Counted from the stretch's first letter, positions 14,658 through 64,000 are shown. The stretch is DNA of 64,000 nt from an uncultured Candidatus Woesearchaeota archaeon (GCA_903864915.1 CAIPHS010000005.1:3968-67967), one strand, 5' to 3'. Translations and numbers: made by a program. The notes: generated by a model not told the origin, from the sequence alone.

Positions 14658-14658
14658 G

Positions 14659-21640: not shown

Positions 21641-22735
21641 ATGGAGTCTGTTGAGGACATTGCTGCAAGGCTGAAAGATATTGAGCAGAAAAGGGAACTC
21701 CTTGCAAAATGCTTCAAAGAAACGGATTCTGCCAAAATAACTAAATTCAAGTTTCCAATCTCGCCGGTTAATCTTAACGGTATAAAAATCTGCGGGGTTG
21801 ATGGTGGCTTCCTGAAAAAAGAATATCACGGTGCAGGCCTCATACTAAGAAGAGCTGTTGCTGTCTGCTTTGAATACATTGATGGCAGGCTGGCCAATGC
21901 CAAATACCATCCAAGCAAGAAACCTTTCCCGGAGCCAATCGTTACCGGTCCTGAATTTTCAGATTATGATTTCAACATACTTGCAAATTTATCAAGGGAA
22001 GAAGTTGAACTGAAGACATGCCTAGAAGCGATTGAGCAGTTCTCCCCAAATGTTCTTGTACGAGACGGTTCTATAGTTTTGCATCCTTCCAGCATGCCGG
22101 AACAATCTTCCAAAGCCTATGGGAAATACAAGGAAATTATTTCTCTTATGAAAGAACTTTACAGGAAATGTGAGGAAAAACACATACTTCTGGTTGGAGC
22201 TGTTGAGGACTCCAAAGGGAAAAGATACTGCAATATCCTGATGCAGGAAGCCATTCCTGCCTTGTTGAAAGCAAACATAACTGTTGAGACTTTGAAAAGA
22301 ATCAATGATTGCAAGGATGTTCTGGAAAATACCACAGACACTTTGTTTTTGTATAATTTATTGAATGTTGGCGAGCGGACAGCAGTTTCAGATTATTCCA
22401 AGACTTCAGAACTACCAATCCTGAAAGACATGGAAGAATATTCGAGGAAACTTTTTGTCCTTTACATGAAAGCTGCAGAATTTGACAGGCCCCTCCGCAT
22501 TGACTTCCTTGCAGACTTTGAGAAGCTCGATGAAACCGCGGAAAAAGCAGCCACAATAATTTTCGAAATTTCAAAACAAAACAGGATGTATTCCTATCCA
22601 TCAGTCTTGATAGAAGCTGACGCCAGAGCCAAATTGATGGAGGATGATATCTTCCACTTTAAGGCAGCATTGGCAGAAAAATTAGGCAGAAATCCCATGT
22701 TGTTTGACTTGAGACGGGATTTGAGGCCGTTCTAA
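21641..22735 (+). CDS. nurA: NurA-type 5'-3' nuclease
   Basis: ICGVDGGFL and LVRDGSIVLHP motifs typical of the NurA domain. Length is about 360 aa, and HerA is nearby. Confidence 0.8.
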   Translation: MESVEDIAARLKDIEQKRELLAKCFKETDSAKITKFKFPISPVNLNGIKICGVDGGFLKKEYHGAGLILRRAVAVCFEYIDGRLANAKYHPSKKPFPEPIVTGPEFSDYDFNILANLSREEVELKTCLEAIEQFSPNVLVRDGSIVLHPSSMPEQSSKAYGKYKEIISLMKELYRKCEEKHILLVGAVEDSKGKRYCNILMQEAIPALLKANITVETLKRINDCKDVLENTTDTLFLYNLLNVGERTAVSDYSKTSELPILKDMEEYSRKLFVLYMKAAEFDRPLRIDFLADFEKLDETAEKAATIIFEISKQNRMYSYPSVLIEADARAKLMEDDIFHFKAALAEKLGRNPMLFDLRRDLRPF

Positions 22736-31084: not shown

Positions 31085-33361
31085 TTAATTTAGTCTAATT
31101 ATATTATTCCCGACTTCTGCCAGCTTTTCTTCATGCGTTACAATAAACAACTGCTCCAGGAATTCCGGCAGGTGTTCCTGCAGCGCCATCATAAAAGAAC
31201 TAATGGCTGCATCATCAAGGTTATGGGTTGGCTCATCAAGGATCAAGATGTTGAATTCTGGCGCCAGCACTTTTGCAAACGCCAGTCTTAATACTAACGC
31301 GGCAAGCATCCTTTCCCCGCCTGAAGCAAAGCCTGCGACATTTACCCATATCCCTTCTGAAGTCCTTAATTGCAACGTATAATCTATATCAGAAGCCTCA
31401 AGATGTATTGAAGTCCACTTTTCGTAAGGATACAGCTTGCTCCAGAGTGAAGACATGACTTCATTGACAGCAGTTATCAGCTCTTTTCTCAATAATTCCT
31501 GCGCTACCAGCAAGGCACTCCTGAACTGCTGCAAAAACTCAACTTTTTTCTGCAGCTGCGCCATGTCAAGCAGCAATTGTTCGGACTGATTCTGCTTCTT
31601 TATCAGTTCAGACAAGTGCTTATGCTTTTCATCAAGCACATAATCAAGCGATTTCTGCCGTTCATTAAGTGCCATGAACTGCTCGAACTTCTTCCGGAAG
31701 TTTGAATCGGCGGTTTCCAAAACATTGTTGTCTGGTCTTGTGGATAATTTTGCCTGCACTTCTGTCAATTGCGATTCAAATTGCTGCAGCTGTTCCTTTA
31801 ATTCAGCCAAGTGCAATTGTTCCCGCAGTTCAGAGTCTTCTTTCCTCAAGTCCCGCAGTGCGCGCTCAGCACTCTCCAATTCAGACTTGCTTTTCTCAAT
31901 TTCCTGTGTTGAACTTTCAATCTTGCCTTTTGTAGATTCGAATATGGCTTGGTAAGTAGAATGCTGCTTCACCCAATCGGGCTCTTTTTTGAGTTCAGAA
32001 AGCAATTCATCTCGCTGTTCGATAAAATCATCTAATTTGTCTTTTCTGGCAGCAAGTTCTTTTCTCCGGATTGCTGCGCTTTCAATCTTGCCTGCCAATA
32101 CTGATATTGACGATTCCCTTTCGGCAACCAATTTCTCCTTTGTACCTTCTTCCAGCGCCCGCGAGCAGATTGGGCAGGCATTTTTTGCAGATTTCAACTC
32201 TTCCAGATGCTTTTTCAAAAACCTGGTTTCACTTTCTGCAGAAGAGATATCCTTTTCCTGTTCCTTTATCTCCGATTCCACCATTTCCAGTTCGCTCTTT
32301 GCATCTTCTGCACCAAATCTCTGCGTCAACTGCTCAAGCTCCAGTTTATATGCTGAAATTTTTTCCAGTTGTATCTTTGCATCTGATAATTTGCTCTCGG
32401 CAACACTTGATTCCCTTCCAGAAATCATCAAGCTCTTGTTCAAGCTATCGAGGGCTTTGTTAAGCTCGAATCTTGTGGTTTCAAAAGAAGCTAATTTGCT
32501 CTTCAACCCATCTAGTTGGACAATTATCTCCGCCTGCGGCCTGATGGGCTCTTTCAACCTGAGCTTTATCTCGTTAATTTGTGCAATGTAAAACTTCTGT
32601 CTTTCCTCAATTCTTGTAAAAGCAGCAAATTTTACTTTCAATTCTTTTAATTCCGATTCTGCATCAAGCTTTTCCCTCTGCGCAGACGCAATCTTGTTAG
32701 ATATTGCATCTTTCTCTTCAGATATCAGAGAAATCTCATTCTGAAGAGAATCAATCTGCGTTTTGAGTTTGTCAACCTCGAAATTTTTAAGCAAATTCTC
32801 TTTCTCGTCCTTTCTGGATGCAATTTTATTCGCTAATGATACGCAGCTTCTCCTTGCAGCCTCGAATTTATGCACGCCCATCAGTTCATCCAATCTTGTT
32901 TTTCTCTCCTGCGGGTTCAATTGCAGGAACAAATCAATCTCATTCTGCTTTGCGTACACTGTTCTGAGAAAAGTATCTTCATCCAGTTTCAAAATATTCT
33001 TCAGGAAAGCTGTCACCTGTGTTGAATTTGTGCCTGCAAGCATGACACCGTCAGCATCCCGGACTGTGGCTTCAGTGCCCTTGCTGTTGATGATGCGCTG
33101 AATCTGGAAAACCTTGTCTGCTGCATCCAGTTTAAGTTCTATGGATGCCTGCGTACCGGAGTTCCTCTTAACAAGCTCAGAGACCTTAACGTCCCTTCTT
33201 TTCACCTCTGGAACACTTCCAAATAACGCGAAACAGATGGCCTGCAGCACGGATGATTTGCCAGAGCCCATTGGCCCTACTAGGACATTAATGCCTGGCT
33301 TGAAGTCCAGCTCTGTCTCTGTGTGTGACTTCCAGTTCTGCAGCTTGATTTTACTAATCAT
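31085..33361 (-). CDS. rad50: Rad50 ATPase (SMC-like DSB repair)
   Basis: Walker A GPMGSGKSS, long coiled coils, zinc hook CPICSRAL, signature SGGERMLAAL, Walker B ILILDEPT. It overlaps mre11 by 4 nt. Confidence 0.9.
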   Translation of the reverse strand: MISKIKLQNWKSHTETELDFKPGINVLVGPMGSGKSSVLQAICFALFGSVPEVKRRDVKVSELVKRNSGTQASIELKLDAADKVFQIQRIINSKGTEATVRDADGVMLAGTNSTQVTAFLKNILKLDEDTFLRTVYAKQNEIDLFLQLNPQERKTRLDELMGVHKFEAARRSCVSLANKIASRKDEKENLLKNFEVDKLKTQIDSLQNEISLISEEKDAISNKIASAQREKLDAESELKELKVKFAAFTRIEERQKFYIAQINEIKLRLKEPIRPQAEIIVQLDGLKSKLASFETTRFELNKALDSLNKSLMISGRESSVAESKLSDAKIQLEKISAYKLELEQLTQRFGAEDAKSELEMVESEIKEQEKDISSAESETRFLKKHLEELKSAKNACPICSRALEEGTKEKLVAERESSISVLAGKIESAAIRRKELAARKDKLDDFIEQRDELLSELKKEPDWVKQHSTYQAIFESTKGKIESSTQEIEKSKSELESAERALRDLRKEDSELREQLHLAELKEQLQQFESQLTEVQAKLSTRPDNNVLETADSNFRKKFEQFMALNERQKSLDYVLDEKHKHLSELIKKQNQSEQLLLDMAQLQKKVEFLQQFRSALLVAQELLRKELITAVNEVMSSLWSKLYPYEKWTSIHLEASDIDYTLQLRTSEGIWVNVAGFASGGERMLAALVLRLAFAKVLAPEFNILILDEPTHNLDDAAISSFMMALQEHLPEFLEQLFIVTHEEKLAEVGNNIIRLN

Positions 33362-34581
33362 AGTAATTCTTCCGCTTTCTCCAGCTCATTTTCTGCCAGG
33401 CAATTGAACAGCTGCTCAAGCTTTTGCATGTCGACAGGCACTGGCAGGTTATCTTTGATCAATTTCAGGCCCATCTGGTCTGCTGAAATCTTCTTTTCCT
33501 TCAAATCCTGCAGGAGAGTGGTCTTTGCTGCTGCCTCGACAGTTGTAAGGTCAGACTTGTCAATGTCCAGGATTGCTTTTCCTGCAAAATCCTTGTAAAT
33601 CTGCGACAAATTAATATCTGCTGTGCTGAAACCAGGTGCAATCGTCCCCTTGACTTTGACTCTAATCATCGGCTTCTGGCTTTGCACTAATGAAACTGCT
33701 TTTGCAACAGCCTGATGGATTGTAAACTGGATTTCTGCAGGCTTCTTTTCCCTAACTTCAACCAGACAGTAATGTGCGGGCCTTATACGTATGGGTTTGA
33801 ATGAAATGTCGCGCAGTTTTTTCTCAGGCGGCAAATCTATTATGAAAAATCCCTTCTCAGCTGTAGATTCTTTCTGGTTCAGCTGCGTTATGACTGTGGA
33901 GCCAGGTATGAGGATTGGTGCTTTTGTCTTTGGATGCTGTTCCTCAACGCGCCAATGATAATGGCCTGCGAGATAGAAGTCAAACTTTTCCGGCAAGTCT
34001 GCGAATTTTATCGCATTTGTATCAACAGGCATTAACTCTGCCAGATTCTGGTGCAGCATCAAGAAATTGTGCGCATTTTCAAACGGCTCGGGCTTCCAGC
34101 TTAACAATGCATCCCGCGCATAATCTTCCGGCACTCCTGATAAACCGTGAATGCCTATCTTCTCATATCCTATTTCGAGCAGAATAGATTCTGCATGCAG
34201 TAAAGTAATGAGGCCTGCCTTTTCTAAAATCTGTGCAGGATTAGTGCTGTTGGTGTGTCTTCGTTCGTGCGTGCCCCATATGCCAACAACTGCTGGAATA
34301 AGCTCCTTTTTTTCAATAACCTGCTTGTCTTTTGTGACTCTTTTAACGACGCTGACTTTTTTCAGCTTCTTGCTCAGGTAATCAAAAAGCTCGATTGCCC
34401 TTCCAAGTATCTCCTGCCTGGGCAGCTTTTCATGGAAGATATCACCCGCAAGCAAAAATAAATCTGGCTTTTCCTTCAGGGCCAGATCAAAGGCCTGCCT
34501 GGCATTTTCAAAGCTCTCCTCCTGTCTCTCAGTGCCATAAGCAAAGCCGAGATGTAAGTCTGAGAGGAAAGCTATTTTCAT
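33358..34581 (-). CDS. mre11: Mre11 nuclease (calcineurin-like phosphoesterase)
   Basis: Phosphoesterase motifs SDLHLG, AGDIFH, GTHE and GHYH. Confidence 0.9.
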   Translation of the reverse strand: MKIAFLSDLHLGFAYGTERQEESFENARQAFDLALKEKPDLFLLAGDIFHEKLPRQEILGRAIELFDYLSKKLKKVSVVKRVTKDKQVIEKKELIPAVVGIWGTHERRHTNSTNPAQILEKAGLITLLHAESILLEIGYEKIGIHGLSGVPEDYARDALLSWKPEPFENAHNFLMLHQNLAELMPVDTNAIKFADLPEKFDFYLAGHYHWRVEEQHPKTKAPILIPGSTVITQLNQKESTAEKGFFIIDLPPEKKLRDISFKPIRIRPAHYCLVEVREKKPAEIQFTIHQAVAKAVSLVQSQKPMIRVKVKGTIAPGFSTADINLSQIYKDFAGKAILDIDKSDLTTVEAAAKTTLLQDLKEKKISADQMGLKLIKDNLPVPVDMQKLEQLFNCLAENELEKAEELL

Positions 34582-43649: not shown

Positions 43650-43736
43650 GCCCGATTAGCTCAGCGGTTAGAGCGATCGCCTGTTATCTATAAGATAGAG
43701 AGCGATAGGCCCGAGGTTCGAATCCTCGATCGGGCG
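43650..43736 (+). tRNA. tRNA-Asn (anticodon GUU) with an intron of about 14 nt
   Basis: Acceptor GCCCGAT/ATCGGGC, anticodon stem ATCGC/GCGAT, loop CTGTTA[intron]A, T arm CGAGG-TTCGAAT-CCTCG. Confidence 0.85.
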
Positions 43737-43758
43737 CTCAGATTTATGGAGGTACAAC

Positions 43759-45033
43759 ATGGCTGCTGAATTCAGTTCGATAGAATCAGTTTTAGATGAC
43801 AAGCAAGCTGGCAAGCTAGTCCATATCAGAGGCTGGGTTCATAGAAAGAGGGACCAGAAGGAGCTGATTTTCCTAGTAATAAGAGATTCCACAGACCTTA
43901 TTCAGGCAGTTATCAAAAAAGACTCGAAGGCCTGGAAAGACGCTGAAAAAATCACAATAGAAAGCTCTTGCGAATTAAGCGGCAAGATAAAGAAAGAAGA
44001 AAGGGCGCCAACCGGCTATGAACTTCAAGTGGATGATTTGAAGATAATCGGCTTGGCTGAAAGGTTCCCAATAACAAAAGACTTGTCTGAAGAATTTTTA
44101 AGAGATGTTAGGCACTTATGGCTTAGAAGCAGGAAATTAACGCAAGTTCTAAGAGTAAGAAGTGAGGTTTTCAGGGCAATCCACGATTTCTACCACAAGG
44201 AAGGCTTTACCGAATACCAATCTCCAATATTCACAACGCAGGCATGTGAAGGTGGTTCAACTTTATTTGAAGTCAAGGGCTTTGACAGAAAAGTTTACCT
44301 GTCACAGAGCTGGCAGCTGCATGCAGAAGCTGGAATATTTGCTCTTGAAAAAATTTACACTGTTGCACCAATGTTCAGGGCTGAAAAATCCAGAACAACA
44401 AGACATCTTGCTGAGGCGTGGCTGGCTGAATCTGAAGCTGCATGGCTGGACTTTGATGGCTTGTTGAAGCAGGAAGAAGAATTGATAATTTATGTCGTAC
44501 AGCATGTTCTCAAAACTTGCAAAAAAGAATTTAAAGAACTTAGCAGGGATACGAAAGATTTGGAATCACTAAAAGCGCCGTTTGCAAGATTAAAATACGC
44601 TGATGCACTAAAGAAATTAGGCAAAAAATGGGGTTATGATTTAACAGACAAGGATGAACGAGAGCTTGTCGCACAGCTTGGAAAACCCATATTCCTGACT
44701 CACTTCCCAAGAGACATGAAAGCATTCTACATGAAGCCAGACCCAAAAGAACCCAAGACAGTTTTAGGTGCGGATTTGCTTGCACCAGGCATAGGCGAGA
44801 TAAGCGGTGGAAGCGAAAGAATTGTTGATGAAAAAGAGCTTCAGAAATCTTTGAAAATATTCAAGCTGAAAGAGGAAGATTATGGCTGGTACATGGATTT
44901 AAGAAAATTCGGCAGTGTGCCGCATTCGGGCATGGGCTTGGGCATAGAAAGGCTCGTGATGTGGCTGACAGGCATGCCACATATAATGGATGTGGTATCA
45001 TTCCCAAGAACGCTGTACAGACTTTCACCTTAG
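43759..45033 (+). CDS. asnS: asparaginyl-tRNA synthetase
   Basis: N-terminal OB domain, YLSQSWQLHAE, FRAEKSRTTRHLAEAWLAESE (AsnRS-type motif 2 region), GSERI, and GLGIERLVMW...PR at the C-terminus. Confidence 0.9.
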   Translation: MAAEFSSIESVLDDKQAGKLVHIRGWVHRKRDQKELIFLVIRDSTDLIQAVIKKDSKAWKDAEKITIESSCELSGKIKKEERAPTGYELQVDDLKIIGLAERFPITKDLSEEFLRDVRHLWLRSRKLTQVLRVRSEVFRAIHDFYHKEGFTEYQSPIFTTQACEGGSTLFEVKGFDRKVYLSQSWQLHAEAGIFALEKIYTVAPMFRAEKSRTTRHLAEAWLAESEAAWLDFDGLLKQEEELIIYVVQHVLKTCKKEFKELSRDTKDLESLKAPFARLKYADALKKLGKKWGYDLTDKDERELVAQLGKPIFLTHFPRDMKAFYMKPDPKEPKTVLGADLLAPGIGEISGGSERIVDEKELQKSLKIFKLKEEDYGWYMDLRKFGSVPHSGMGLGIERLVMWLTGMPHIMDVVSFPRTLYRLSP

Positions 45034-45845
45034 AATTTTTCTATTATTCTTTTCATTGCTAGTGCATCTTGCTCCAGCAATGGTGTTTCGCAGATTAAGG
45101 TTATGTCTGACTTTCTTTTTACAAGCTCTTTTGCCAGCTCTGCGAAATCTGGTGTCTTTTGTGCAATCGGAACATGGATATCTACAAAACTCTTTGAAGT
45201 TGTGCTGTATTTCACGCAATTGAAGTGTGAATTGATGTGTTTGATTCCCAAATCTTTCAACTCATCAAGGATTTTTGCAAAGTCTTCCTTTCCATCTGGG
45301 CAATAAAGATGCCCCCAGTCCAGATAGGGCACAAAATGCTTCTTGAATTTCTTGTAAATGTCGATAATTTCGCTGAGTCTGCCCCATTGCGAAGCCTTTC
45401 CCATAGTTTCATAGCCAAGCTTCGTATTCTTGATGCCAAGCTTTTCCATTTTTTCCACAATTTGTGTGGTGACGTCAATCATTTGCTTCTGGGCTTCTTC
45501 TTTGGAAAGTTTGCCATAATAGGACGCATGGGCAGCAATTGCGTCTGCACCCATTCTTTCAGCCCGGTCTAGAGAATCAATAATTCTTTGTATTGATGCT
45601 TGAACTATGGCTTTCTTGTCTGAAAGCAGGTTTATGTAGTAAGGCGCATGCACGCTCAGCCTCACGCCAAGCTCTTTTGCAACTTTTCCGACTTCTGTGG
45701 CCAATTCCGGAGACATATTAACGCCACGAACAAACTCAACTTCTAAGGCATTAAGGCCGAGGCGGGCACATTCCTTTATCCCGCCTATCGTAGAACGTTC
45801 CTTAGAACTAGTCGGCACGCCCCCAGAGCCGATGAAAATAGCCAT
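45030..45845 (-). CDS. nfo: endonuclease IV-like AP endonuclease (xylose isomerase-like TIM barrel)
   Basis: GLNALEVEF and LSVHAPYYINL segments. Length is about 270 aa. Confidence 0.75.
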   Translation of the reverse strand: MAIFIGSGGVPTSSKERSTIGGIKECARLGLNALEVEFVRGVNMSPELATEVGKVAKELGVRLSVHAPYYINLLSDKKAIVQASIQRIIDSLDRAERMGADAIAAHASYYGKLSKEEAQKQMIDVTTQIVEKMEKLGIKNTKLGYETMGKASQWGRLSEIIDIYKKFKKHFVPYLDWGHLYCPDGKEDFAKILDELKDLGIKHINSHFNCVKYSTTSKSFVDIHVPIAQKTPDFAELAKELVKRKSDITLICETPLLEQDALAMKRIIEKF

Positions 45846-47285: not shown

Positions 47286-47837
47286 TTATACATCTGCATA
47301 GAATGTTTCTGGCTGTAAAACAATTTTTCCTATGTATTTTTCGTATTCCGGATTCATTCGTGCAACAAAAGGTGTAATGGTACAAGCTGCGGTATTTCTC
47401 AGCATAACTGGCAGCTCAGAATCCCAGTCAATATTGTTCCAAAGGTATTCTATGCATTCTGCATACTTATCATTAAATTTAAGGTCCTCTGGTGCATAAT
47501 TAGGAAGATTTACTCGCCAGGGCTCAGATGCAAGTGGCTTCCAGAAAGTGACTTCGCGCTCTTCCACTAACTGCAATATTTCTGAGAGGACCTTTTGTGG
47601 AACAACAGCAAGCCCTCGTGCACAAAGTTCGCCCTTTTTATAAATCTCTATACTTTTATCAGGATTAAGGAAAATTGGCACAACGTTATTTCTGTGAATC
47701 TCATAATATTTTTGTTTAACTTTATTTTCAGCCGGGCCCGCGGGTGATATAATCGCGATATCTTTTCTTGAAATGTATATTTGCCCTATCTCCTTTGGAT
47801 GTAAGCATAATAAGCAAGATTCTAAAGTGGCATGCAT
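47286..47837 (-). CDS. hypothetical protein
   Basis: 183-aa ORF. Its stop codon lies 1 nt from the 3' end of the convergent tRNA-Glu. I recognise no motif. Confidence 0.6.
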   Translation of the reverse strand: MHATLESCLLCLHPKEIGQIYISRKDIAIISPAGPAENKVKQKYYEIHRNNVVPIFLNPDKSIEIYKKGELCARGLAVVPQKVLSEILQLVEEREVTFWKPLASEPWRVNLPNYAPEDLKFNDKYAECIEYLWNNIDWDSELPVMLRNTAACTITPFVARMNPEYEKYIGKIVLQPETFYADV

Positions 47838-47893: not shown

Positions 47894-49120
47894 TCATTTT
47901 GCTTTTGTTGGATTTAGATTATAGTTTTCGGGCAAGCAGGCGTAGTGCTGAAATAGCTCTGCTGGTGTTATGTTTATTTGCCGCAAAAGTTTGCAGAAGC
48001 GCCAGCAGTTATAATCTGCGAAGCAGTCACTGCACCCGTCCTTTTTAAGAGGCTCATTTACTTTACGGGTTTCTAGCCAACTTGCAGGATTTTGCAAAAG
48101 AAGTTTCTGCCTTTCTATGGACTGATCGATGCGATTTTCCAGATCTATTATGTGAGGATTCTCTAGTGAGTATTCGAACTCGCAGATATCAAACACTGTT
48201 TCGCGATAGCTTGGGAGTATTGCTTTGTAATCCGGCGGGGTATAAGGCGGGCGTTCGATTATTGTCAGTATGCTTTCGGGCTTAATTTTAAGGGTTTGAC
48301 AAACGCCCAAGCCATAAAATAAAAGCTGGTCTTTTTGCGTAGTCGACTGAGTTCGCTTTCTGTCCAAAACTGCAATATGCTTTGTGCTTCCCCACTCTTT
48401 TATACAGGCCAGCCCGTCAAATTTGCCCTGAAGTCGCCACCCGTCTCTAGTCTGATAATAAACGCGCTTTTCAGCAAATTCCTCTCTTGACATGCCTGCT
48501 TGATTGTGCAAGAATGGTCTTTGCCTATCTTCTGGTTGCTGATTGTAAATTAGGTGTGCTAATGTGCCTAGCAGGCCTAAAGGATTGTCTTTCGGCCTGA
48601 AGCCATCATCTAACATTTGCGGCATAATTTCTAAATTGGCTAAAATACGGTAAACTTCACACCAATGATTAACGGGAGAGATGCGCATATCGTATTCGCG
48701 GAATGGCTGGCTTTCAAAAGGCAAGAATTCAAATTGGCCTTCGCCTCTAATTTCGCGCAAGAATTTTTTGCCATTTCCTTTTATACCAAAAAATTCGACC
48801 TCTTGGTTCATAGAATTCAATCTATCTTTAGATGACTCTATGCTATTACACATGTAATTGCGCTTATAGGTGTCCTCAACCAACAGCTTGACATGATCGC
48901 CAATAACTTCTTTTTTGTCAATTAAATCTTGCAGAAACGTTGCTGTGCAGGATTGTTTTTCTGAATTTAGGCTTGGGTTATCACAAAGCCTATTCTTACA
49001 TCCGCACTTGAAGAAAGCCAGGCTAACTTCTTCGTTATTCAATAACCTTGCGACTTGGGGGCATGATTTTAACATAGCCGGTGTTGCACTATTTGTTTTC
49101 GCTTTGGAAACCAAGCACAC
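47894..49120 (-). CDS. Cas4/RecB-like PD-(D/E)xK nuclease with Fe-S cysteines and an N-terminal Cys-rich extension
   Basis: Motifs appear in the canonical order: WCEVYR (N-terminal Cys), GTLAHLIY, LQGKFDGL, IAVLDRKRT (DxK), QLLFYGLG (QxxxY) and C-terminal CSDCFADYNCWRFC. The extra N-terminal ~150 aa contains CGCKNRLC. An alternative start is at 49075. Confidence 0.75.
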   Translation of the reverse strand: MCLVSKAKTNSATPAMLKSCPQVARLLNNEEVSLAFFKCGCKNRLCDNPSLNSEKQSCTATFLQDLIDKKEVIGDHVKLLVEDTYKRNYMCNSIESSKDRLNSMNQEVEFFGIKGNGKKFLREIRGEGQFEFLPFESQPFREYDMRISPVNHWCEVYRILANLEIMPQMLDDGFRPKDNPLGLLGTLAHLIYNQQPEDRQRPFLHNQAGMSREEFAEKRVYYQTRDGWRLQGKFDGLACIKEWGSTKHIAVLDRKRTQSTTQKDQLLFYGLGVCQTLKIKPESILTIIERPPYTPPDYKAILPSYRETVFDICEFEYSLENPHIIDLENRIDQSIERQKLLLQNPASWLETRKVNEPLKKDGCSDCFADYNCWRFCKLLRQINITPAELFQHYACLPENYNLNPTKAK

Positions 49121-50145
49121 TTGAAGTTATTTTTCAAAATCTTAATTGCGCTTGGGCTAATCTCTCGCTGCCTGCTTTTTTTTGCGTCGTCACGTCTCAT
49201 TAGCTCAGATTCTGTGATTTTGAAATTAGATGCATAAGGAGATTTTATAACTGCTTGATAAATTTCAGAACCTTTTATTGCATAGATATTTATTTTATTT
49301 AATCCTAGCCTAGACCACAAACCTTTTTCTGGACTTGTATAAGCTGCGCTAAACAAAAATGCGCAAATGTATTTAGTTGCATCTATATCGCGAATTTGTT
49401 TGCGCCTGTCTTCACCTATAATTCCATCGTGTAACAGTAAACTTTTTGCCAGTTCTGAAGAAAGGACCGAAGTATGGAAATCTGAATTGGGCTGCTGTAC
49501 AAGCGGCTCTTTTGTAATTTCCTTTTCTAGACTTCCAAATCCTTTTTTATTTCGTGCTCGCATTTCTTGGTTCACCTGTTCGAAAACATCCTTGAAATAA
49601 TAGCACACAACAGATTTAGGGTAAAGATATGGAATTTTAACAAATTCCATAAAGTCTGTCATGAACATAAACAAATCAGCTTTGTACGCGTCTAAAGGTT
49701 TTGAAGTTTCTTTTTGGAAATCTTCGTCTAGCTCTTTAATTGCTGAAACCAAGATATTGCTCAGCTCGAAGTCTTGTGCAATGGGGTCGTGACCTACAAG
49801 TCTTTTCCTGCCTTCGCTCTGGTTTGGCGACTCCCCAGTAAACCACCATATTCTTTTGTCCTTTATACTGTCCAAATTTTTGGCTACAAGCGCATTGTGC
49901 CTGTATATAATTTCTTGTGCCGCAACATATTTCCACTTTTTAGAACCCACTTCCAGCGCGTCTTCAACCAAACATATCTCTTCTTCCAAAATATTCCGCA
50001 AATAGCCTTGCTCAAATCTGCTTCGCGGCAGGTCTTCCAAGAGCTCACTTTTAGACGGAAGAAAGGGCAGCAGCCGGTAATATAAATAATATATTGCTTT
50101 GCGGGGGTCTGAGCGAACACTTACTGGGGATGTCCAGCCTGGCAT
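49069..50145 (-). CDS. hypothetical protein (first gene of the Cas4-like operon)
   Basis: 358-aa ORF that overlaps the downstream nuclease gene. It is divergent from the PolB-like gene across a 50-nt gap. I recognise no motif. Confidence 0.6.
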   Translation of the reverse strand: MPGWTSPVSVRSDPRKAIYYLYYRLLPFLPSKSELLEDLPRSRFEQGYLRNILEEEICLVEDALEVGSKKWKYVAAQEIIYRHNALVAKNLDSIKDKRIWWFTGESPNQSEGRKRLVGHDPIAQDFELSNILVSAIKELDEDFQKETSKPLDAYKADLFMFMTDFMEFVKIPYLYPKSVVCYYFKDVFEQVNQEMRARNKKGFGSLEKEITKEPLVQQPNSDFHTSVLSSELAKSLLLHDGIIGEDRRKQIRDIDATKYICAFLFSAAYTSPEKGLWSRLGLNKINIYAIKGSEIYQAVIKSPYASNFKITESELMRRDDAKKSRQREISPSAIKILKNNFKCAWFPKRKQIVQHRLC

Positions 50146-50195
50146 GGCATGAAACTTAAAGTTACTCTTAAAAGACTTCTGTAAAAATTGCTTCT

Positions 50196-53009
50196 ATGCC
50201 TTCGATAGTTTGGGATATATTGCCTGCTGCTGGAAAGGGCGGCACAGAATGCTGGGTCTATTTGCGAAAAAACGACAAAACCGTTAAAATTCAAAAAGAT
50301 TTGTGTCAAATATTCCTATCAAGATGGAATTCTAAGCAAAATATCGAAAAGCTTAGATCGAGTTATGAGCTAAACTCTCCAAATATTAAAACTGAAATAC
50401 ATGATGCGGGGGAAGGCCGTTGGTTTTTAGAGATACAAGGCCCCCGCAGCCTCGATGAGATATTGGATAAAAGTTCTTTTAGAAATTCTCCATCAATTTA
50501 CGAATCATTCGCACTACAGACAAAGCCTTTTTCTTTAATTGACGACGCTGGCGATGCTAGTGAGCAAGCCTCTGTTGAGGACATTTGCAACCAGACGGTT
50601 GCCGTACTCGATATAGAAAAGCAAGATTGGGAGCCTAACTCCGGCAGGACGCCCAAGATTTGTGCAGCATCTATCGGAATTTCAAAGCCCGATGGTGCAC
50701 AAAAGTATTACACAACTGCAATCTGGCCAATACACAAAGAAGGGATAGATTCTGAGCATCTCCCTGTTCGAAATCCTCTTGAGCTAGCACTTTTGACATC
50801 TTACATTCTACGAAAAGAAGACCCAGGATTCGTCGCTGGCCAAAACATACAGAAATATGATTTTGAAGAGCTAAAGATGAATTACAGAGGACTTTTCACA
50901 GCAGGTGGAAGGAAAGAATTTTTTGAGAGATTAAAGAATAGCAGGGAAGGAAAAGATAAGGATCTAAATCTTGAAGATATCAGCAAATCTCTTTCAGAGT
51001 TAGAACACGCAATTGAGCATTGGTACGAAACTGGCGAGATTAAATTTGAAAACAGACTTGGCTTTAGAGTGTTTGATGAATTTACTGCATTGCTTTCTTA
51101 TATCAGCCAAATGACTCAAGAATGGGCTGCAACAGGTGTGCGGCCTTTTTATCTTCAAGATAGACCGGATAAGGAAAACATACACACAACGCTGCTAAAA
51201 TTAATTAGGCAATTTGAGCTTCCAGAGCAGTTGAAAGATTGGCTTGCTGAAAAATACAGCAAAGGCACGAAGGCTAACCTGAAACGTGCTGTGGAAAGTG
51301 GAGAAGAATTGCCGGAATGGCTGCAAATGCGCCTTCGCACGGATTTTAGCAATGACTTGGAAAAAATTTGCCGCCATAATTTAGCAAAATTAGTCAAGGA
51401 GGGGGTTTTCCTTCTTGGTATTGACAAAGAAGAACCGGGCTTCAAGTCGGTCTCATATATGCGGAAGCAGCATTGCGCTGGCTTGCAAATAATAGACACT
51501 TACACCTTTTCGCATAACCATCTGGATTTGCCGAATGACAAGCTTCCAACAATAATAGCTCACTTTGATGACTGCTATGTCAAAGCTCTAAAACATGGAG
51601 AAATAACACCAACAGCTAGAGCTGCTGAGGCTGGCGATAAGATTTCTGGAACTAAATTAGTAAAGTATAATTTAGAGGACGTCAAAGCCACTTTAAAGCT
51701 CACACGCACGATAATGCCAACCGAAGCAGAGCTCGCCAGATTATACGAAACAGATTTTGCAACTGTTAGTACAACTTCAATTGGCACTGTACAAGATATA
51801 CTTTTCAAGAAGCAAAACTATGGGAAAAAGAGATTCTGGCGCATATTTTATGATGCAGAAAAAGACATATTGGAAGAAAAGTTTAGACCTGCTCAACCCG
51901 GAAATAGGCGCGAGGAGCCAGGGCTAGGTTTTGACTTTAAGGCAGAGAAAGGTAATTTTGAGCAGCTAACTGCAATTTACCCCACACATATTTTCAGGGC
52001 TTTAGAAGCGCTGGTGCGAAGCAACCCTTGCGGCGAACATCTTTTGAAACTTTTTGGAGCTGAAACTCGCCCAACTTTCAAAATAATTTATGCCCAGCAT
52101 CTTGACAAGCTCTGCACGAGGCTCCTTTATGATACGGAATCAATGCGGGATGTCTTTGCTTTAGAAGAGCAAACATCGCAAAACCTTAAGGAAAAAGTAA
52201 TAACTGCTGCAGAAGAGCTAAAGGACTTTTTAAGCAAACACAGCTCAAATGTTGTAAATGCGTCTAAGAGGCTGGCTTTTCTTAAAGGCCCACCTAATTT
52301 GGAAAGTGAGCTGCGAGCAAATCCAAATCTGTATTTTGCAGGCATTGCTGAAAAAGTTTCGTCTAAAACAAAAGGCAGAATAGCTGCTGGCTTGAATGGT
52401 AAAATCTATAGCTCTGGAATTACTTTAGACAGACGGAGCAGAAAAGGTGACTTGTCTTACATTGATAAAATAATAAGAGAAGAGACCTTCAGTATACATT
52501 TTTCCAAGCTTAGCACAAGCGAGAAAGTCTCTGCGCTACAAAACTTGTTTTCAAGCTTAGAAGGTCAAATAATAGAGCATTATTTCTTTGAAGACAAGCC
52601 TAGCAGGCCCCTGTCCGATTATTCTATATCTTACACTAATACGAGGCGGTATCAAAGGATGGAATTAGCAGAAGCAAAAAGTGGTGAGCTTGTCCTTGGT
52701 GCGTACATTTTGAACAAAGGTTTTGTGCCACATTGGGCAATTGAAGAGAATGATAAGCCAGACTTAGAAGTTTATAGAACTAAGCTATTTGGGCCCCTTA
52801 AAAAAGACAAAAGCAAAGGCAGAAATCTCACAGGAGGTGTGGTTGGTGATTGGTTGTTGTCTATGTTCAATGCCAAAGGGAAATATGATGTTTATAGCGC
52901 TTTAAGCAGGCTTTGTGAATGCAGGGCACACGGAGCAGATTTGCAATTATTGGCAAAATCATACGATTTAAACGTACCTGTGCAGCAAGCAACCCTATCT
53001 TCATTTTAG
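50196..53009 (+). CDS. family B DNA polymerase homolog: exonuclease motifs intact, polymerase catalytic motifs lost
   Basis: Exo I VAVLDIE (aa 139-141), Exo II GQNIQKYDF (aa 216-223) and Exo III YNLEDVKATLKL (aa 491-495) are present. The motif A region reads EKGNFEQLTAIYPTHI (YP kept, Asp-bearing strand missing). The motif C position reads NASKRLAFL (no DTD). The KxY region reads KTKGRIAAG...GITLDRRSRKGD. Confidence 0.8.
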   Translation: MPSIVWDILPAAGKGGTECWVYLRKNDKTVKIQKDLCQIFLSRWNSKQNIEKLRSSYELNSPNIKTEIHDAGEGRWFLEIQGPRSLDEILDKSSFRNSPSIYESFALQTKPFSLIDDAGDASEQASVEDICNQTVAVLDIEKQDWEPNSGRTPKICAASIGISKPDGAQKYYTTAIWPIHKEGIDSEHLPVRNPLELALLTSYILRKEDPGFVAGQNIQKYDFEELKMNYRGLFTAGGRKEFFERLKNSREGKDKDLNLEDISKSLSELEHAIEHWYETGEIKFENRLGFRVFDEFTALLSYISQMTQEWAATGVRPFYLQDRPDKENIHTTLLKLIRQFELPEQLKDWLAEKYSKGTKANLKRAVESGEELPEWLQMRLRTDFSNDLEKICRHNLAKLVKEGVFLLGIDKEEPGFKSVSYMRKQHCAGLQIIDTYTFSHNHLDLPNDKLPTIIAHFDDCYVKALKHGEITPTARAAEAGDKISGTKLVKYNLEDVKATLKLTRTIMPTEAELARLYETDFATVSTTSIGTVQDILFKKQNYGKKRFWRIFYDAEKDILEEKFRPAQPGNRREEPGLGFDFKAEKGNFEQLTAIYPTHIFRALEALVRSNPCGEHLLKLFGAETRPTFKIIYAQHLDKLCTRLLYDTESMRDVFALEEQTSQNLKEKVITAAEELKDFLSKHSSNVVNASKRLAFLKGPPNLESELRANPNLYFAGIAEKVSSKTKGRIAAGLNGKIYSSGITLDRRSRKGDLSYIDKIIREETFSIHFSKLSTSEKVSALQNLFSSLEGQIIEHYFFEDKPSRPLSDYSISYTNTRRYQRMELAEAKSGELVLGAYILNKGFVPHWAIEENDKPDLEVYRTKLFGPLKKDKSKGRNLTGGVVGDWLLSMFNAKGKYDVYSALSRLCECRAHGADLQLLAKSYDLNVPVQQATLSSF

Positions 53010-60163: not shown

Positions 60164-60811
60164 TCACTTCATCTCTTCTAAAGGCAAACTTCCGTGCTCT
60201 GACCAGAATACCATATCGAGCTCTGCCATAGAAATGTTTAGATTCTTGGCAAACTCTTTCATCAGCCTTTCAATGTGAAGATACTTGTTTTTGGGCAGCA
60301 CGAGCGGAATTTCAGTAATTACTTTGTGCTTGTACAATTCGGTCATTATGTGCCTGTCTAAGATTGCCAAATCACTTCCATGACCAATGTTTCTCAAGAA
60401 GTGCGTTGCTTCTTTCATACCCAAGCCTTCGACATTATCGGCCAGCCAGTTTCTCAAGCCCCAAAGGTCCTCTGTGTTTAACATCGACTTTATTTTTACT
60501 TTTCCATCGCGTGAGAAGCGCTGTCGCGCAGCTACAACGTACTTTGCCTTGTTGTTATGGAACCTAACTCCATTCTTATCCAAAACAAGGGCAATCTCCT
60601 CTGGTTTTCCGGAAAATAACAAGTTAGCTGTCTGGAGCGCGTTTATGGCTTTGTTTGCGGCAGAGGCTTTTGTCTGTGGCGTGCATAGGCAGAAACACAG
60701 CTCTGCAAAAATCCTTTCGTCAGGCTCGTACTTTATCCTGTCAAGCTCTTCCAGCCTTTTCTTGATATCTGCCTTCTTGGAAGCGTAAAGCAAAAGCAAA
60801 GATGATTCCAT
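60164..60811 (-). CDS. HhH-GPD N-glycosylase/AP lyase (archaeal Ogg2-type 8-oxoguanine glycosylase-like)
   Basis: VEGLGMKEATHFLRNIGHGSDLAILDRHI, a helix-hairpin-helix with the catalytic Lys context and Asp. Length is about 215 aa. Confidence 0.8.
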   Translation of the reverse strand: MESSLLLLYASKKADIKKRLEELDRIKYEPDERIFAELCFCLCTPQTKASAANKAINALQTANLLFSGKPEEIALVLDKNGVRFHNNKAKYVVAARQRFSRDGKVKIKSMLNTEDLWGLRNWLADNVEGLGMKEATHFLRNIGHGSDLAILDRHIMTELYKHKVITEIPLVLPKNKYLHIERLMKEFAKNLNISMAELDMVFWSEHGSLPLEEMK

Positions 60812-60889
60812 TAGTTAAAGAAGAAAAGAAGCGAATTTAAACCTTGCTTAGAGCGATAGATTTATTTAAGGCCCATACTTTTTGTAAGC

Positions 60890-61432
60890 ATGGTCACAAT
60901 TGCTTACACAGGCAAGGGCGATACTGGCGAGACTAATCTTTTTGGTGGCCTTAAGGCCAATAAATCTTCTCTTCGAATAGAGGCTTATGGCGCAATTGAC
61001 GAGTTAAACTCTTACATCGGAGTCTGCAGGGCTGTTTCAAGCAAGGAAACAACTAACATCCTTGAGAAAATCCAGAAGGATCTGTTCGTTCTGGGCGCGG
61101 ATCTGGCAAATGTTCGTGAAACCAAGGCTGGCGCACTAAGAATTTCCCAGAAAGAAACCAAAGACATGGAAGACGTCATTGACAGCATCAATGGAAAGCT
61201 GCCTGACCTCAAAAAATTCATTCTCCCGGCAGGCACAATTTCTGCAAGCCACCTTCATGTTGCAAGGTCAATCTGCAGAAGGGCTGAAAGAAGGGCAATC
61301 TTGCTGAAAGAAAGTGAAAACATCAACATTGCAATAGTCCCTTACCTCAACAGGCTGTCTTCTTTGCTATTTGTGCTGGCAAGATATGAAAATGTCAAGA
61401 AGAAAGTAAAGGAAGAAGAGTGGAGTTCTTAG
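60890..61432 (+). CDS. PduO-type ATP:cob(I)alamin adenosyltransferase
   Basis: YTGKGDTGETNLFGG...RIEAYGAIDELNSYIG and the C-terminal RAERR segment. Confidence 0.85.
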   Translation: MVTIAYTGKGDTGETNLFGGLKANKSSLRIEAYGAIDELNSYIGVCRAVSSKETTNILEKIQKDLFVLGADLANVRETKAGALRISQKETKDMEDVIDSINGKLPDLKKFILPAGTISASHLHVARSICRRAERRAILLKESENINIAIVPYLNRLSSLLFVLARYENVKKKVKEEEWSS

Positions 61433-61932
61433 AATTTATAGACTTCATACTTTGACAATTCCGCAGTTATGGTCTCGTTCCAGTCTGCAATTATACTTGA
61501 AAATCTTTTCCTGATTTCGTTTTTCAGCGAGGCAAGCTCCGCTGCAGATTTCGCAAGTATAACGAAGAAAAGATCATAATTACCAATAACTGAAAAGACA
61601 ATTATAATTCGATCGTGATTTTTCAAGTAAGTCAAAAATTGCTGCAGCTTTTCGTCAGTTATGTCCTTCAGCTTGACATAAACCTGGGCATCTACTGGCA
61701 ACCCAAAGAATGCAGGATTAGGGATTGCGCAAAGCCTCATTATTGCCCCGCATTCAAGCATCTTTTCAAGCCGGCCCTTTACACCATCAATTGACATGCC
61801 CACTTCTTTCGCCATATCTTTGAGGGTTGTACGGCTGTTTTTATTGAGCAAATTGAATATTTTCTTATCTTTCTCGTCTATTTTTACGTCTTTTATGCTT
61901 ATTTTCCCCGTTTTATTCTCAGCACTTTGCAT
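61429..61932 (-). CDS. Lrp/AsnC family transcriptional regulator
   Basis: DKKIFNLLNKNSRTTLKDMAKEVGMSIDGVKGRLEKM forms the HTH, followed by an RAM domain. Confidence 0.8.
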   Translation of the reverse strand: MQSAENKTGKISIKDVKIDEKDKKIFNLLNKNSRTTLKDMAKEVGMSIDGVKGRLEKMLECGAIMRLCAIPNPAFFGLPVDAQVYVKLKDITDEKLQQFLTYLKNHDRIIIVFSVIGNYDLFFVILAKSAAELASLKNEIRKRFSSIIADWNETITAELSKYEVYKF

Positions 61933-62049
61933 ACTATTACCTAATAAATAGCATTATTTATATACTTTTTCCTATTTTATCGGCTTTTTCTTCATAAAAG
62001 CTTATTAACACATACTTACTATATAGATATAAAATATGCTGTGAACAAA

Positions 62050-62613
62050 ATGGTAAAATTCAAAGAATTGTCATGGTGCTTAGGAGAAACGCCAAGTCTA
62101 GGAGTTACTAGCGTTGGCCTTAATGAGTACTACTTATTTGCGTCTTTGGACGGTAGGGGTGCTTGCTGGGGCGTTAACCACCCTAAAAGAATGCACCTTA
62201 ACGGATGGCGTTCTGCCTTTCAGGTTTATGACATTGACCTGGCCACGTTAATGGACGTCAATGTTACGCTAGAGGATATTAAGAAAAAGGACATCAAAGA
62301 CATTGACGTATTCGAAACCGCAGAACTCGCAAATGAGGCTGGAAGTTGGGTAAAAGATCCAAAACTTAGAGAAATGATACCATTATTTGATCCTATGAGA
62401 AAAGGGATGTACTTGCACTACAGAAAAGAGCCTAAACAAAGTTTAGCATATAACCTAAACCACTGCTTCATAAATAAAATAGAACCTATTGGCGAAGACA
62501 AGGATGAAATTGAATGGCTAAAGAGCTACCTGAACGCGCAAAAAATACCATTCGAAATCAAAAAGCAAACTTTTGAGGGCGCATCACACCTAGATAGAAT
62601 AAAGGTTGAATGA
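62050..62613 (+). CDS. hypothetical protein
   Basis: The ORF-track start at 62041 is a GTG. ATG 62050 lies about 25 nt downstream of a TATATAGATATAAAAT box, so the mRNA is probably leaderless. I recognise no motif. Confidence 0.55.
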   Translation: MVKFKELSWCLGETPSLGVTSVGLNEYYLFASLDGRGACWGVNHPKRMHLNGWRSAFQVYDIDLATLMDVNVTLEDIKKKDIKDIDVFETAELANEAGSWVKDPKLREMIPLFDPMRKGMYLHYRKEPKQSLAYNLNHCFINKIEPIGEDKDEIEWLKSYLNAQKIPFEIKKQTFEGASHLDRIKVE

Positions 62614-62634
62614 AAGGGCAAAGGGAAATAAAAA

Positions 62635-63228
62635 ATGGGAATAGACAAATACATCCAAAAGGCTAAAAAAACGCTGAGCACGAAAAACCCTTTCGTCATA
62701 GTGTCTTATATTGTTGCACCGTACATTAGCAAAAATCAAATTACGTTGGTTTCTGATGCTGCCAAAAATGCACTTAAAGAAGGCGACGTTTATGCGAAAG
62801 GCTTAATTGGAAAATTAAAAGACGAACTCGAAGCAGAGCTTTGCATTGACTCAAACGATGAAATTAAAGTAAATTATGATGGTCACCTTCACGGTCTCCC
62901 ATTTGAAGTAAGATCTAAATTTCCCCACGGAATTGCTTTTTTAGAAAAGGTATGCTTCAGGTACGAAAGGCTTGAAGGATTCCCAGAACTCAAACACATA
63001 ATTCCCACGGAAAGTGGTTATGCGCAGCTTATGAAAATCGCTCTTCATCGTGAAACCTACCTTTACAATACCGACATAATTACATTGGATTTTTTGACAA
63101 AAACAGCAGGAATCAAGCTGAAAGACGCCAGTATTACAAAAGCTTGGGAAACCGAACTCGGGAAGAGATGGTTTGAAGCTGCAAAGAAATTAGGATTTGA
63201 ACCCTCAGATAACTGGGCAGACTGTTGA
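62635..63228 (+). CDS. hypothetical protein
   Basis: 197-aa ORF with no motif I recognise. Confidence 0.55.
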   Translation: MGIDKYIQKAKKTLSTKNPFVIVSYIVAPYISKNQITLVSDAAKNALKEGDVYAKGLIGKLKDELEAELCIDSNDEIKVNYDGHLHGLPFEVRSKFPHGIAFLEKVCFRYERLEGFPELKHIIPTESGYAQLMKIALHRETYLYNTDIITLDFLTKTAGIKLKDASITKAWETELGKRWFEAAKKLGFEPSDNWADC

Positions 63229-64000
63229 ATGGCACCAGCCTGATGTCTCTGGCTTTGCTATTACAAACGGCTCTGCCTTTGGCCTTGTCTCTTCCATCTC
63301 GCCAATGTACAGGACCTGCTCTGGCTTGCTTCCATATCGGTAAATTGTTATCCCCTTGCATTTGGATTTGTATGCGAGCTCGTAAGCCTTCTTTACTTCC
63401 TCAACTTTAGCTTCCCGCGGGAAGTTAATAGTCTTTGAAACAGCATTATCGGTATATTTCTGGAACGCTGCCTGCATCTTGACGTGCCATTCCGGCTTTA
63501 TTTCGAGAGCTGTGATGAAAACCTTGCGTATTTCTTCAGGAATTTCCTTGAATTTTTGAATAGTGCCTGATTTTGCAATCTTTTTCATCAATTCTTCTGA
63601 GTAAAATCCTCTTTCATAGGCCATATGTTCGAAAACTGGGTTGACTTCTATCAAGCGCGTGCCTTCCAGCACATGCCTTACGAAAGATACTGCGAACAAA
63701 GGCTCGATGCCTGACGAGCAGCCAGCTATTATTGAAATAGTTCCTGTTGGGGCTATTGTTGTGCACGTTGCGTTGCGCATGTGCTTGTGACCTTTTTTCT
63801 GCCACGAGCTGCCTTTGAAGTTCAGGAAGTTTCCTCTAATCTTTCCCAGCTCCGAAGAGGCCCTGTGCGCCTCTTCGTTTATGAATCTCATCAGCTTTTC
63901 AGCAACTTCAATCGCTTTTTCTGAATCATAAACGATATTCATCATGCAAAGCATGTCTGCAAAGCCCATTATCCCAAGGCCAACTCTCCTGTTTGCTTTT
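63205..64000 (-). CDS. nrdJ: ribonucleotide reductase, probably class II (adenosylcobalamin-dependent); C-terminal part, gene runs off the window end
   Basis: NATCTTIAPTGTISIIAGCSSGIEPLF and a C-terminal Cys pair (WCHSTVC). The frame stays open to position 64000. Confidence 0.8.
   Translation of the reverse strand, partial: KANRRVGLGIMGFADMLCMMNIVYDSEKAIEVAEKLMRFINEEAHRASSELGKIRGNFLNFKGSSWQKKGHKHMRNATCTTIAPTGTISIIAGCSSGIEPLFAVSFVRHVLEGTRLIEVNPVFEHMAYERGFYSEELMKKIAKSGTIQKFKEIPEEIRKVFITALEIKPEWHVKMQAAFQKYTDNAVSKTINFPREAKVEEVKKAYELAYKSKCKGITIYRYGSKPEQVLYIGEMEETRPKAEPFVIAKPETSGWCHSTVCPVI

Follow-up and report, generated by a model that had tools for sequence, protein, structure and literature searches.

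Among the family B DNA polymerases (PolBs) described as inactivated in the open-access literature, the exonuclease has also been lost, or was never there, and these proteins count as scaffolds; PolB2 is a translesion synthesis (TLS) polymerase. In PolB2 (Dpo2), Exo I is not conserved and Exo III is missing, motif C has one Asp plus a His, and a D(K/R) motif is present (PMC7544198, PMC4104785). Its operon contains arCOG07300 and an inactivated RadA (PMC7544198, PMC4104785), and the protein, once called inactive from its motifs, was later shown to be a working TLS polymerase (PMC7544198). The C-terminal module of Pol epsilon, poxvirus F12 and the helicase-fused Tlr1/polinton-like virus (PLV) remnants are PolBs exapted after the loss of polymerase catalysis. 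A subset of the family X polymerases (PolX) combines a dead polymerase site with a retained, active PHP 3'-5' exonuclease (PMC12926913). Here, we analyzed a 64,000-nucleotide stretch of DNA from an uncultured Candidatus Woesearchaeota archaeon (GCA_903864915.1 CAIPHS010000005.1:3968-67967; hereafter the window), with a focus on one PolB-derived gene in which the opposite outcome is seen: the proofreading site is frozen by selection and synthesis has been discarded, across an archaeal superphylum. We consider it probable (roughly 0.6) that its product is a PolB3-like descendant turned dedicated, PCNA-tethered DEDDy 3'-5' exonuclease, acting with a Cas4-like nuclease in repair or end processing.

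Scans of the window's 937-aa protein against Pfam and NCBIfam gave no match, which explains why such genes stay unannotated. Word-indexed homolog searches returned only an ortholog of 96% identity, on a 9-kb metagenome contig (L001), or canonical PolBs, and an exhaustive HMMER scan of 1.84 billion representatives yielded 33 further relatives with 20-30% identity, 646-1047 aa when full length. The resulting alignment (A1) holds 35 sequences, and residue counts given below are over its 32 full-length members. A locus search with a family sub-alignment provided six genome loci and two metagenome loci. Relatives with a named source come from Nanoarchaeota, Aenigmatarchaeota, the 'DPANN group' or Nanobdellati, all of them DPANN archaea, and the labels they carry at present are 'hypothetical protein', 'RNase H-like domain-containing protein' and '3'-5' exonuclease'.

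By descent, the window gene is a family B DNA polymerase, and the whole PolB architecture is kept, in the order N-terminal domain, DEDDy exonuclease, degenerate palm/fingers, thumb and a tail resembling a PCNA-interacting peptide (PIP). A phmmer search of the PDB linked query residues 401-578 to residues 225-396 of Pfu Pol, a match that is weak (E=2e-5) but genuine, with an alignment spanning Exo III and the start of the palm. With the family profile, Thermococcales B3 enzymes ranked first in the PDB (E=2e-42), followed by Pol delta, herpesvirus polymerases and E. coli Pol II. This alignment consists of two stretches only: Pfu 135-407, which holds the exonuclease and the N-terminal palm, and Pfu 595-735, which is the thumb. 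For the catalytic palm/fingers core lying between the two, not even the family profile produced an alignment to a PDB PolB. By hhalign, A1 matched three bona fide PolBs (P0035-P0037, bearing DFRGMYPS, KILSNSFYG and YSDTDS) with a probability of 99.5% (E=6.7e-23). An AlphaFold2 model of the window protein, built on A1, reached a mean pLDDT of 76 and a pTM of 0.77, with low confidence at residues 231-399 and in the last 11 residues and confident prediction elsewhere. Its best Foldseek match in the PDB, P. abyssi PolB in editing mode, extended over the full length, with E=1.5e-20 and a TM of 0.64 on the target; Pol alpha came next, and viral PolB structures matched less well than archaeal B3. The rank order of the PDB matches points to archaeal B3 as the closest polymerase group. 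The original prediction, made from the DNA alone, had proposed homology to archaeal PolB along the whole length, and the profile, hhalign and Foldseek results agree with it; the open reading frame (ORF) and all the peptides that it quoted were also found in place.

The DEDDy (DnaQ-like) 3'-5' exonuclease motif set is complete, with DxE in Exo I, Nx2-3[FY]D in Exo II and Yx3D in Exo III, and catalysis is predicted. D139, E141, D222, Y491 and D495, which are all five DEDDy residues, are each invariant in 32/32 full-length members. With identities of only ~22%, this invariance is hard to explain without catalysis. The register was confirmed by hhalign, which paired all three motifs with their canonical counterparts (Table 1), in line with the three intact Exo motifs claimed beforehand. 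PF03104, the PolB exonuclease domain, was matched by 7 of the 35 aligned sequences, and PF00136, the PolB polymerase domain, by none of them (0/35).

The polymerase site shows the reverse pattern, as the catalytic carboxylates of motifs A and C and the whole of motif B are gone across the DPANN-wide family. Motif A of active PolBs reads DxxSLYPS. In the hhalign alignment, the canonical motif A DFRGM falls in a deletion of exactly 5 residues (LTAI-----YP), matching the expectation of a motif about 5 residues shorter that has lost its Asp. An alternative HMMER register aligns the motif A Asp to T597, and columns 591-600 are acidic (D/E) in 0-2/32 members. At motif C, the Tyr of YxDTDS pairs with N688 and the two Asp pair with S690 and R692, so that D-T-D is replaced by S690-K691-R692 in the window protein and by the pattern N-x-S-x-x (N[YF]Sxx) in the family. 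N688 is invariant (32/32); acidic residues are found in column 690 in 1/32 members and in columns 691 and 692 in 7/32 each, and no acidic column is conserved. The earlier claim that DTD is missing is thus borne out, and in either register acidic residues at motifs A and C are absent from the query and not conserved among the 32 members. Motif B (KxxxNSxYG), whose K, N and Y bind the incoming dNTP, has no counterpart in hhalign, its region being occupied instead by a family-specific LDxxxEExLxDL helix, and this, together with the lack of PF00136 matches, agrees with the loss that had been proposed. The expectation of a recognisable KxY/thumb region was right for the thumb, which aligns (Pfu 595-735), but not for KxY itself, as the canonical KKY is replaced by GRI in the window and by G-R-[IV] in the family.

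The gene is not in decay. In comparison with the 96% ortholog, the whole gene has a dN/dS of 0.126 and its polymerase-like half one of 0.158, and among distant members the mean pairwise identity is 0.21-0.23 in palm/fingers and thumb versus 0.22-0.27 in the exonuclease segments. All parts of the gene are therefore under purifying selection. The dead polymerase half is as conserved as the exonuclease half, indicating that it has a maintained function, the obvious one being DNA binding.

These features set the family apart from each of its closest described relatives. With PolB3 (the PolB of the Thermococcales, such as Pfu, KOD, Tgo and P. abyssi), it shares the domain order, the best match in both sequence and structure and, putatively, a C-terminal PCNA-binding peptide. 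It differs in that the motif A Asp is deleted, DTD has become N-x-S-x-x, motif B is absent and KxY has become GR[IV]; in addition, PolB3 is without the up1 and Cas4-like neighbours (described below) that pair with the family (PMC4104785). Like PolB2, it is a PolB paralog with substituted polymerase motifs and dedicated partner proteins, implicated in repair. The pattern is nevertheless reversed with respect to PolB2, with an intact exonuclease, a fully lost polymerase site, and up1 and a Cas4-like nuclease as partners. The original prediction had already set the gene apart from the published inactivated archaeal PolB families, and for PolB2 the intact Exo motifs, the lack of any motif C Asp and the absence of small helical or RadA-like neighbours uphold this distinction. 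In the Pol epsilon module, F12 and the Tlr1/PLV remnants, the exonuclease motifs are lost or lacking and the role is thought to be structural, whereas the family described here keeps all of them. The PolX subset is the nearest conceptual parallel, since there too the exonuclease is kept and the synthesis site decays, but the folds are unrelated (a family X palm with a PHP nuclease versus family B with a DnaQ-like DEDDy nuclease). Finally, RNase_H_2 (PF13482, YprB-like) is a DEDD domain related to the PolB exonuclease that three family members match weakly, and one member is named 'RNase H-like domain-containing protein' by NCBI; RNase_H_2 proteins are short and single-domain, in contrast to the entire ~700-aa scaffold found here, thumb and N-terminal domain included.

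Neither an exonuclease-only PolB group nor the gene triad described below is mentioned in surveys of the diversity of PolBs (2020) and of the replisome (2025), in a 2026 census of bacterial polymerases, in a phylogenomic study of Cas4 or in a survey devoted to lineage-specific hypothetical proteins of archaea. Judged from the open-access literature, an exonuclease-only PolB family of DPANN archaea is apparently undescribed. These genes would escape any census of PolBs in which polymerase motifs are a condition for inclusion.

The window protein also carries a helical insertion of ~169 residues, delimited by an hhalign gap, by the PDB alignment (query 401 corresponding to Pfu 225) and by the model, in which it is helical with a pLDDT below 50. 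The Exo II Asp is separated from the conserved Gly that follows it (G429) by a spacing of 207 residues in the window protein versus ~36-46 in most members. Smaller insertions occur at the same site in P0006, P0013 and P0002, and some other members have insertions between Exo I and Exo II. The dN/dS of the insertion is 0.054 against the 96% ortholog. The insertion is a lineage-specific decoration at a permissive site, an insertion hotspot, and not a family feature. It had been described beforehand as ~165 extra, highly charged helical residues, of which the insertion itself and its helicity hold, but the charge is only moderate (34% charged residues versus 27% in the remaining protein). In the survey of homologs, the motif loss proved to be conserved and the insertion did not.

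The PIP-box consensus is Qxxhxxaa, usually at the very C-terminus, and the shortened AKTLF and QKSFF bind archaeal PCNA (PMC4858679). Among the full-length family members, ~21/32 carry Qxx[LIMV]xx[FYW], or QxxLF as a shorter form, either at the C-terminal end itself or no more than ~10 residues away from it; the background of the long pattern inside family proteins is 9e-4 per position. In the window protein, the second aromatic of Qxx[LIM]xx[FYW][FYW] is missing, and the tail is disordered in the AlphaFold2 model, as expected for a short linear motif. This tail may tether the protein to PCNA.

Immediately upstream of the PolB-derived gene, on the opposite strand, the window contains two adjoining genes, here named up1 and up2, neither of which has a Pfam match. 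The divergent up1/up2 arrangement was found in 10/11 lineages (window/L001, L002, L004, L006, L008, L015, L016, L017, L018 and L011), and the two genes are present in every lineage for which upstream DNA is available, except L010. Hidden Markov models (HMMs) of up1 and up2 from five lineages recovered the neighbours in others with E values of 1e-19 to 1e-79. In two DPANN lineages, one ORF of ~740-750 aa encodes a fusion of up1 with up2 (L015, 3691-5949, and L011, 2926-5136, both on the minus strand), which argues for a physical interaction of the two proteins.

Ten up2 sequences (alignments A2 and A6) share the invariant residues D235, D253-x-K255 and Q265xxxY269, plus Cys clusters. PADLOC Cas4 models match 4/10 up2 members (best E=1.2e-6) and Pfam PDDEXK_1 matches 3/10 (best E=5.6e-5), and up2 is, on these sequence features, predicted to be a divergent Cas4/RecB-type nuclease. 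Cas4 proteins ligate a 4Fe-4S cluster through four Cys, one N-terminal and three C-terminal (CxxCx5C). The four N-terminal Cys of up2 are nearly invariant, and the C-terminal CSDCFADYNC of the window protein is not conserved in all members; up2 may contain an Fe-S cluster. With the solo-Cas4 proteins of DPANN archaea, up2 shares the D, DxK and QxxxY core, the Cys clusters and a location outside CRISPR loci in small-genome archaea (PMC5704561). It differs in being highly divergent, with only 3-4/10 members reaching Cas4/PDDEXK models, and in being linked or fused to up1 and paired with a PolB-derived gene, an association that was not found in the text of PMC5704561. Profile searches of the PDB with up1 and up2 gave no match. 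Candidate identities of up1 as a degenerate Cas1, a Toprim domain or an N-terminal-Pro glycosylase were rejected, as it has no conserved catalytic residues and matches no Cas1 model.

The spacer between up1 and the PolB-derived gene is compact and conserved. From ATG to ATG, it measures 46-53 nt in 9/9 lineages, and a roughly symmetric TTTAAG/TTAAAAG lies at its centre (position ~21-29) in 8/9, L017 having AAATAAATTT. In the window, the TTAAAAG element is 22-23 nt from each of the two start codons. Archaeal promoters place a TATA box ~26 nt upstream of the transcription start, and this spacing suggests that one shared bidirectional TATA element could drive two leaderless divergent transcripts. 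If so, the PolB-derived gene and the up1/up2 operon would be co-regulated.

Genes of base excision repair (BER) were found near the module formed by the three genes. Endonuclease IV (Endo IV) is encoded within a few kb in the window, L004, L016 and L017, 8-oxoguanine DNA glycosylase (Ogg) in the vicinity in the window and L004, uracil-DNA glycosylase (UDG) in L006, and an HhH-GPD glycosylase together with PolX in L016. At every locus examined, the flanking genes are housekeeping genes (ribosomal protein operons, aminoacyl-tRNA synthetases, ribonucleotide reductase (RNR)).

From the sequences, we infer an exonuclease activity, a lack of polymerase activity, PCNA binding and complex formation. 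In the mechanism that we propose, the dead polymerase half (thumb and palm) would bind a primer-template or a DNA end and feed the bound 3' strand into the exonuclease site, in a permanent 'editing mode' in which nucleotides would be removed from the 3' end. The QxxLxxF/QxxLF tail would hold the protein on PCNA, and the protein would form a complex, or share a pathway, with up1 and the Cas4-like nuclease, the triad trimming or resecting DNA ends during repair. Candidate tasks are to clean mismatched or blocked 3' ends after AP-site (apurinic/apyrimidinic) incision, to proofread in trans for polymerases that lack an exonuclease, and to resect flaps or ends. A proofreading or end-processing role had been suggested previously; the tail with its PIP-like motif, an obligatory neighbour of the Cas4 type and BER genes close by add weight to it. 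The parent idea of an exonuclease-only PolB derivative also survived, at the level of sequence, what was found at motifs A and C, at the DEDDy residues and in the comparison with PolB2.

If active, the protein would represent an 'editing-mode-only' PolB of natural origin and could help to explain how DNA partitions between polymerase and exonuclease sites. It would also define a repair or end-processing pathway in the reduced-genome DPANN archaea, whose DNA maintenance is poorly understood, and give the divergent solo-Cas4 nucleases a concrete, testable partner and role. A broader version of this proposal is that the triad is a vertically inherited, DPANN three-protein machine for DNA-end processing, consisting of a PCNA-tethered dead-PolB exonuclease, a Cas4-like nuclease and a novel-fold up1 under one bidirectional promoter. 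We put this forward tentatively, at a little less than even odds. Such a machine would be the first cellular instance of a replicative-type PolB converted into a dedicated exonuclease and, among the enigmatic solo-Cas4 proteins found in archaea with small genomes, would reveal what one class does.

Some observations weigh against a dedicated, PCNA-tethered exonuclease with a nuclease partner. L010, a single member, has neither the up1/up2 neighbours nor the tail, and for about one third of the members a PIP-like tail is either missing or not clear. No PCNA gene lies within the 64-kb window. For up1, no fold could be assigned (no Pfam, PDB or PADLOC match). Proximity is weak evidence in compact DPANN genomes, and that of the BER genes is not fully independent, given that the window and L004 share an ancestral arrangement. 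Lastly, the precedent of PolB2 means that motif loss alone is no proof of inactivity. PolB2, predicted inactive and then shown to be active (PMC7544198), and likewise the primer-independent PolBs (piPolBs), raise the question whether the protein is still a polymerase, with an active site rebuilt from other acidic residues or an unusual mechanism, and acidic columns are indeed conserved in the polymerase-like half (D557, D637, D646, D745, 757, 794 and 831). These columns, however, sit in the fingers helix and the thumb and not in the motif A/C strands; the motif A Asp and one of the motif C Asp residues persist in PolB2 and piPolB, and the family lacks all three; the K, N and Y of motif B are gone as well; and the palm/fingers core aligns to no PDB PolB. 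We therefore regard a rebuilt polymerase as very unlikely. A dead but conserved polymerase half would also suit a catalytically silent scaffold. In that case the protein would resemble the C-terminal half of Pol epsilon, and its role would be to organise a complex for replication (a replisome) or repair on PCNA while cutting no DNA. The structural roles known for inactivated PolB modules (Pol epsilon C-terminal half, poxvirus F12) are in favour of a scaffold, and a PIP-like tail and obligatory partners fit it too. Yet the five DEDDy residues are invariant in 32/32 members at ~22% identity, and the known scaffold derivatives have also lost the exonuclease motifs (PMC4104785, PMC7544198), which makes a silent scaffold quite improbable.

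The pairing with a Cas4-like gene brings up a different origin, namely a domesticated mobile-element or antiviral defence module (a casposon- or virus-derived PolB with Cas4) that degrades foreign DNA instead of mending the chromosome. In casposons and archaeal viruses, Cas4-family nucleases are found together with PolBs, a part in defence has been suspected for the solo-Cas4 proteins of DPANN (PMC5704561), evolution of the proteins is fast, with 20-30% identity between lineages, and defence-like genes lie a few kb away in L002. On the other side, tblastn found no match in phage and plasmid collections, viral PolB structures match less well than cellular B3, PADLOC gave no Cas1 or other defence-model match except the Cas4 domain, the module stands among housekeeping genes at every locus examined, and the conserved promoter architecture suggests vertical descent. 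A defence or mobile module is for these reasons unlikely in our view. A decaying pseudogene or a misassembled polymerase gene might have been suspected from the lack of Pfam and NCBIfam matches for the window protein and from the large, low-confidence insertion. It is already refuted by the intact 937-codon frame, which is preserved on a metagenome contig of independent origin (96% identity, dN/dS 0.126), by the 33 distant members with the same motif pattern and by an AlphaFold model that is confident outside the insertion. The dedicated exonuclease thus stays our preferred reading.

Table 1. Position of the PolB-derived gene, its motifs, its partner genes and nearby repair genes in the window.
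Feature	Position (nt)	Strand	Remarks
PolB-derived gene	50196..53009	+	937 aa; intact ORF
Exo I, D139-I-E141	50610..50618	+	paired with canonical FDIE as LDIE (hhalign)
Exo II, QNIQKYDF	50841..50864	+	D222 at 50859-50861; GQNIQKYD pairs with canonical GYNxxxFD (hhalign)
Lineage-specific helical insertion	50886..51392	+	aa 231-399, ~169 residues; hhalign gap, PDB alignment (query 401 = Pfu 225), model
Exo III, Y491-N-L-E-D495 (YNLED)	51666..51680	+	versus Pfu YSMED (phmmer), canonical YSLGD (hhalign)
Degenerate motif A, EKGNFEQLTAIYPTHI	51945..51992	+	catalytic Asp absent; family consensus RGxF..v.vvYP
Degenerate motif C, VVNASKRLAFLKGPP	52251..52295	+	family consensus [IV][IV]N[YF]SxxFxFL; N688 at 52257-52259
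PIP-like motif, Q931-A-T-L-S-S-F937	52986..53006	+	directly before stop codon; protein end ...VQQATLSSF
Divergent intergenic spacer	50146..50195	none	50 nt; central TTAAAAG at 50168-50174
up1, partner gene	49069..50145	-	358 aa; conserved N-terminus MPxVDxxKxLSxPxK, few invariant residues
up2, Cas4/RecB-like PD-(D/E)xK nuclease (predicted)	47894..49120	-	likely start M16 at 49075
Endonuclease IV-type AP endonuclease	45030..45845	-	Pfam AP_endonuc_2, E=1e-34
8-oxoguanine DNA glycosylase	60164..60811	-	Pfam Ogg-HhH, E=1e-54

The exceptional member L010 (4680-7130, plus strand) is located on a short contig binned as 'uncultured Methanosarcinales'. Its Exo motifs are intact and it has the family-type NIIN motif C region, without up1/up2 neighbours and without a PIP-like tail. 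Either this is DPANN DNA that was placed in the wrong bin, or the member represents an offshoot that has diverged. Next to the module in the window, a third upstream ORF (47286-47837, minus strand; 183 aa, no Pfam match) is 81% identical to its L001 ortholog, compared with 96-97% for its neighbours, and is not conserved beside the module in other lineages, so that it is a fast-evolving, lineage-specific gene.

At L016, the surroundings of the module form a compact repair island (1202-2917 and 8124-8723, both on the minus strand), with PolX, an HhH-GPD glycosylase and Endo IV nearby. The PolX gene (HHH_8, thumb and PHP domains) is two genes beyond up2, and the HhH-GPD glycosylase gene is directly downstream of the PolB-derived gene. 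The window (60164-63969) and L004 (1-4222) show a shared synteny of RNR, Ogg, the module, Endo IV, aspartyl-tRNA synthetase (AspRS) and FttA, and such an extended synteny despite module proteins that are ~23% identical suggests a long-standing chromosomal neighbourhood.

As a whole, the window is a segment of an archaeal chromosome, with aminoacyl-tRNA synthetases, FttA, HerA/NurA, Mre11/Rad50, MCM and intron-containing tRNAs; genes for canonical PolB, PolD and PCNA are absent from its 64 kb. A casposon or other self-synthesising transposon was considered and rejected, as there is no Cas1 match among the neighbours, the PolB is predicted to be inactive and the flanks are housekeeping genes; no search was aimed at terminal inverted repeats. 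NurA (21641-22735, plus strand) and HerA (24042-25541, plus strand) form one end-resection cluster, with an unannotated 388-aa ORF between them, and Rad50 (31085-33361, minus strand) with Mre11 (33358-34581, minus strand) forms a second, separate cluster, rather than the usual single operon with NurA/HerA. An ORF of 431 aa (1948-3243, minus strand) has the MCM AAA+ and lid domains only, with no MCM N-terminal or OB domain, and directly upstream of it on the same strand is a 515-aa ORF without a Pfam match (3316-4863, minus strand); together, they may represent a split or highly divergent MCM. Rfam tRNA matches of 100-112 nt that were uncalled by ARAGORN lie at 1838-1947, 4878-4985, 6126-6237 and 18949-19048 (all on the minus strand), and these four tRNAs are probably intron-containing, which fits an archaeal genome. 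The tRNA called by ARAGORN at 43650-43737 has an unresolved anticodon. Finally, three radical-SAM genes, of which one includes a SPASM domain, form a cluster at 9170-15675 (minus strand) together with genes for an aminotransferase, an M20 peptidase and a HEAT/PC-repeat protein, in what may be a locus for peptide or cofactor maturation.

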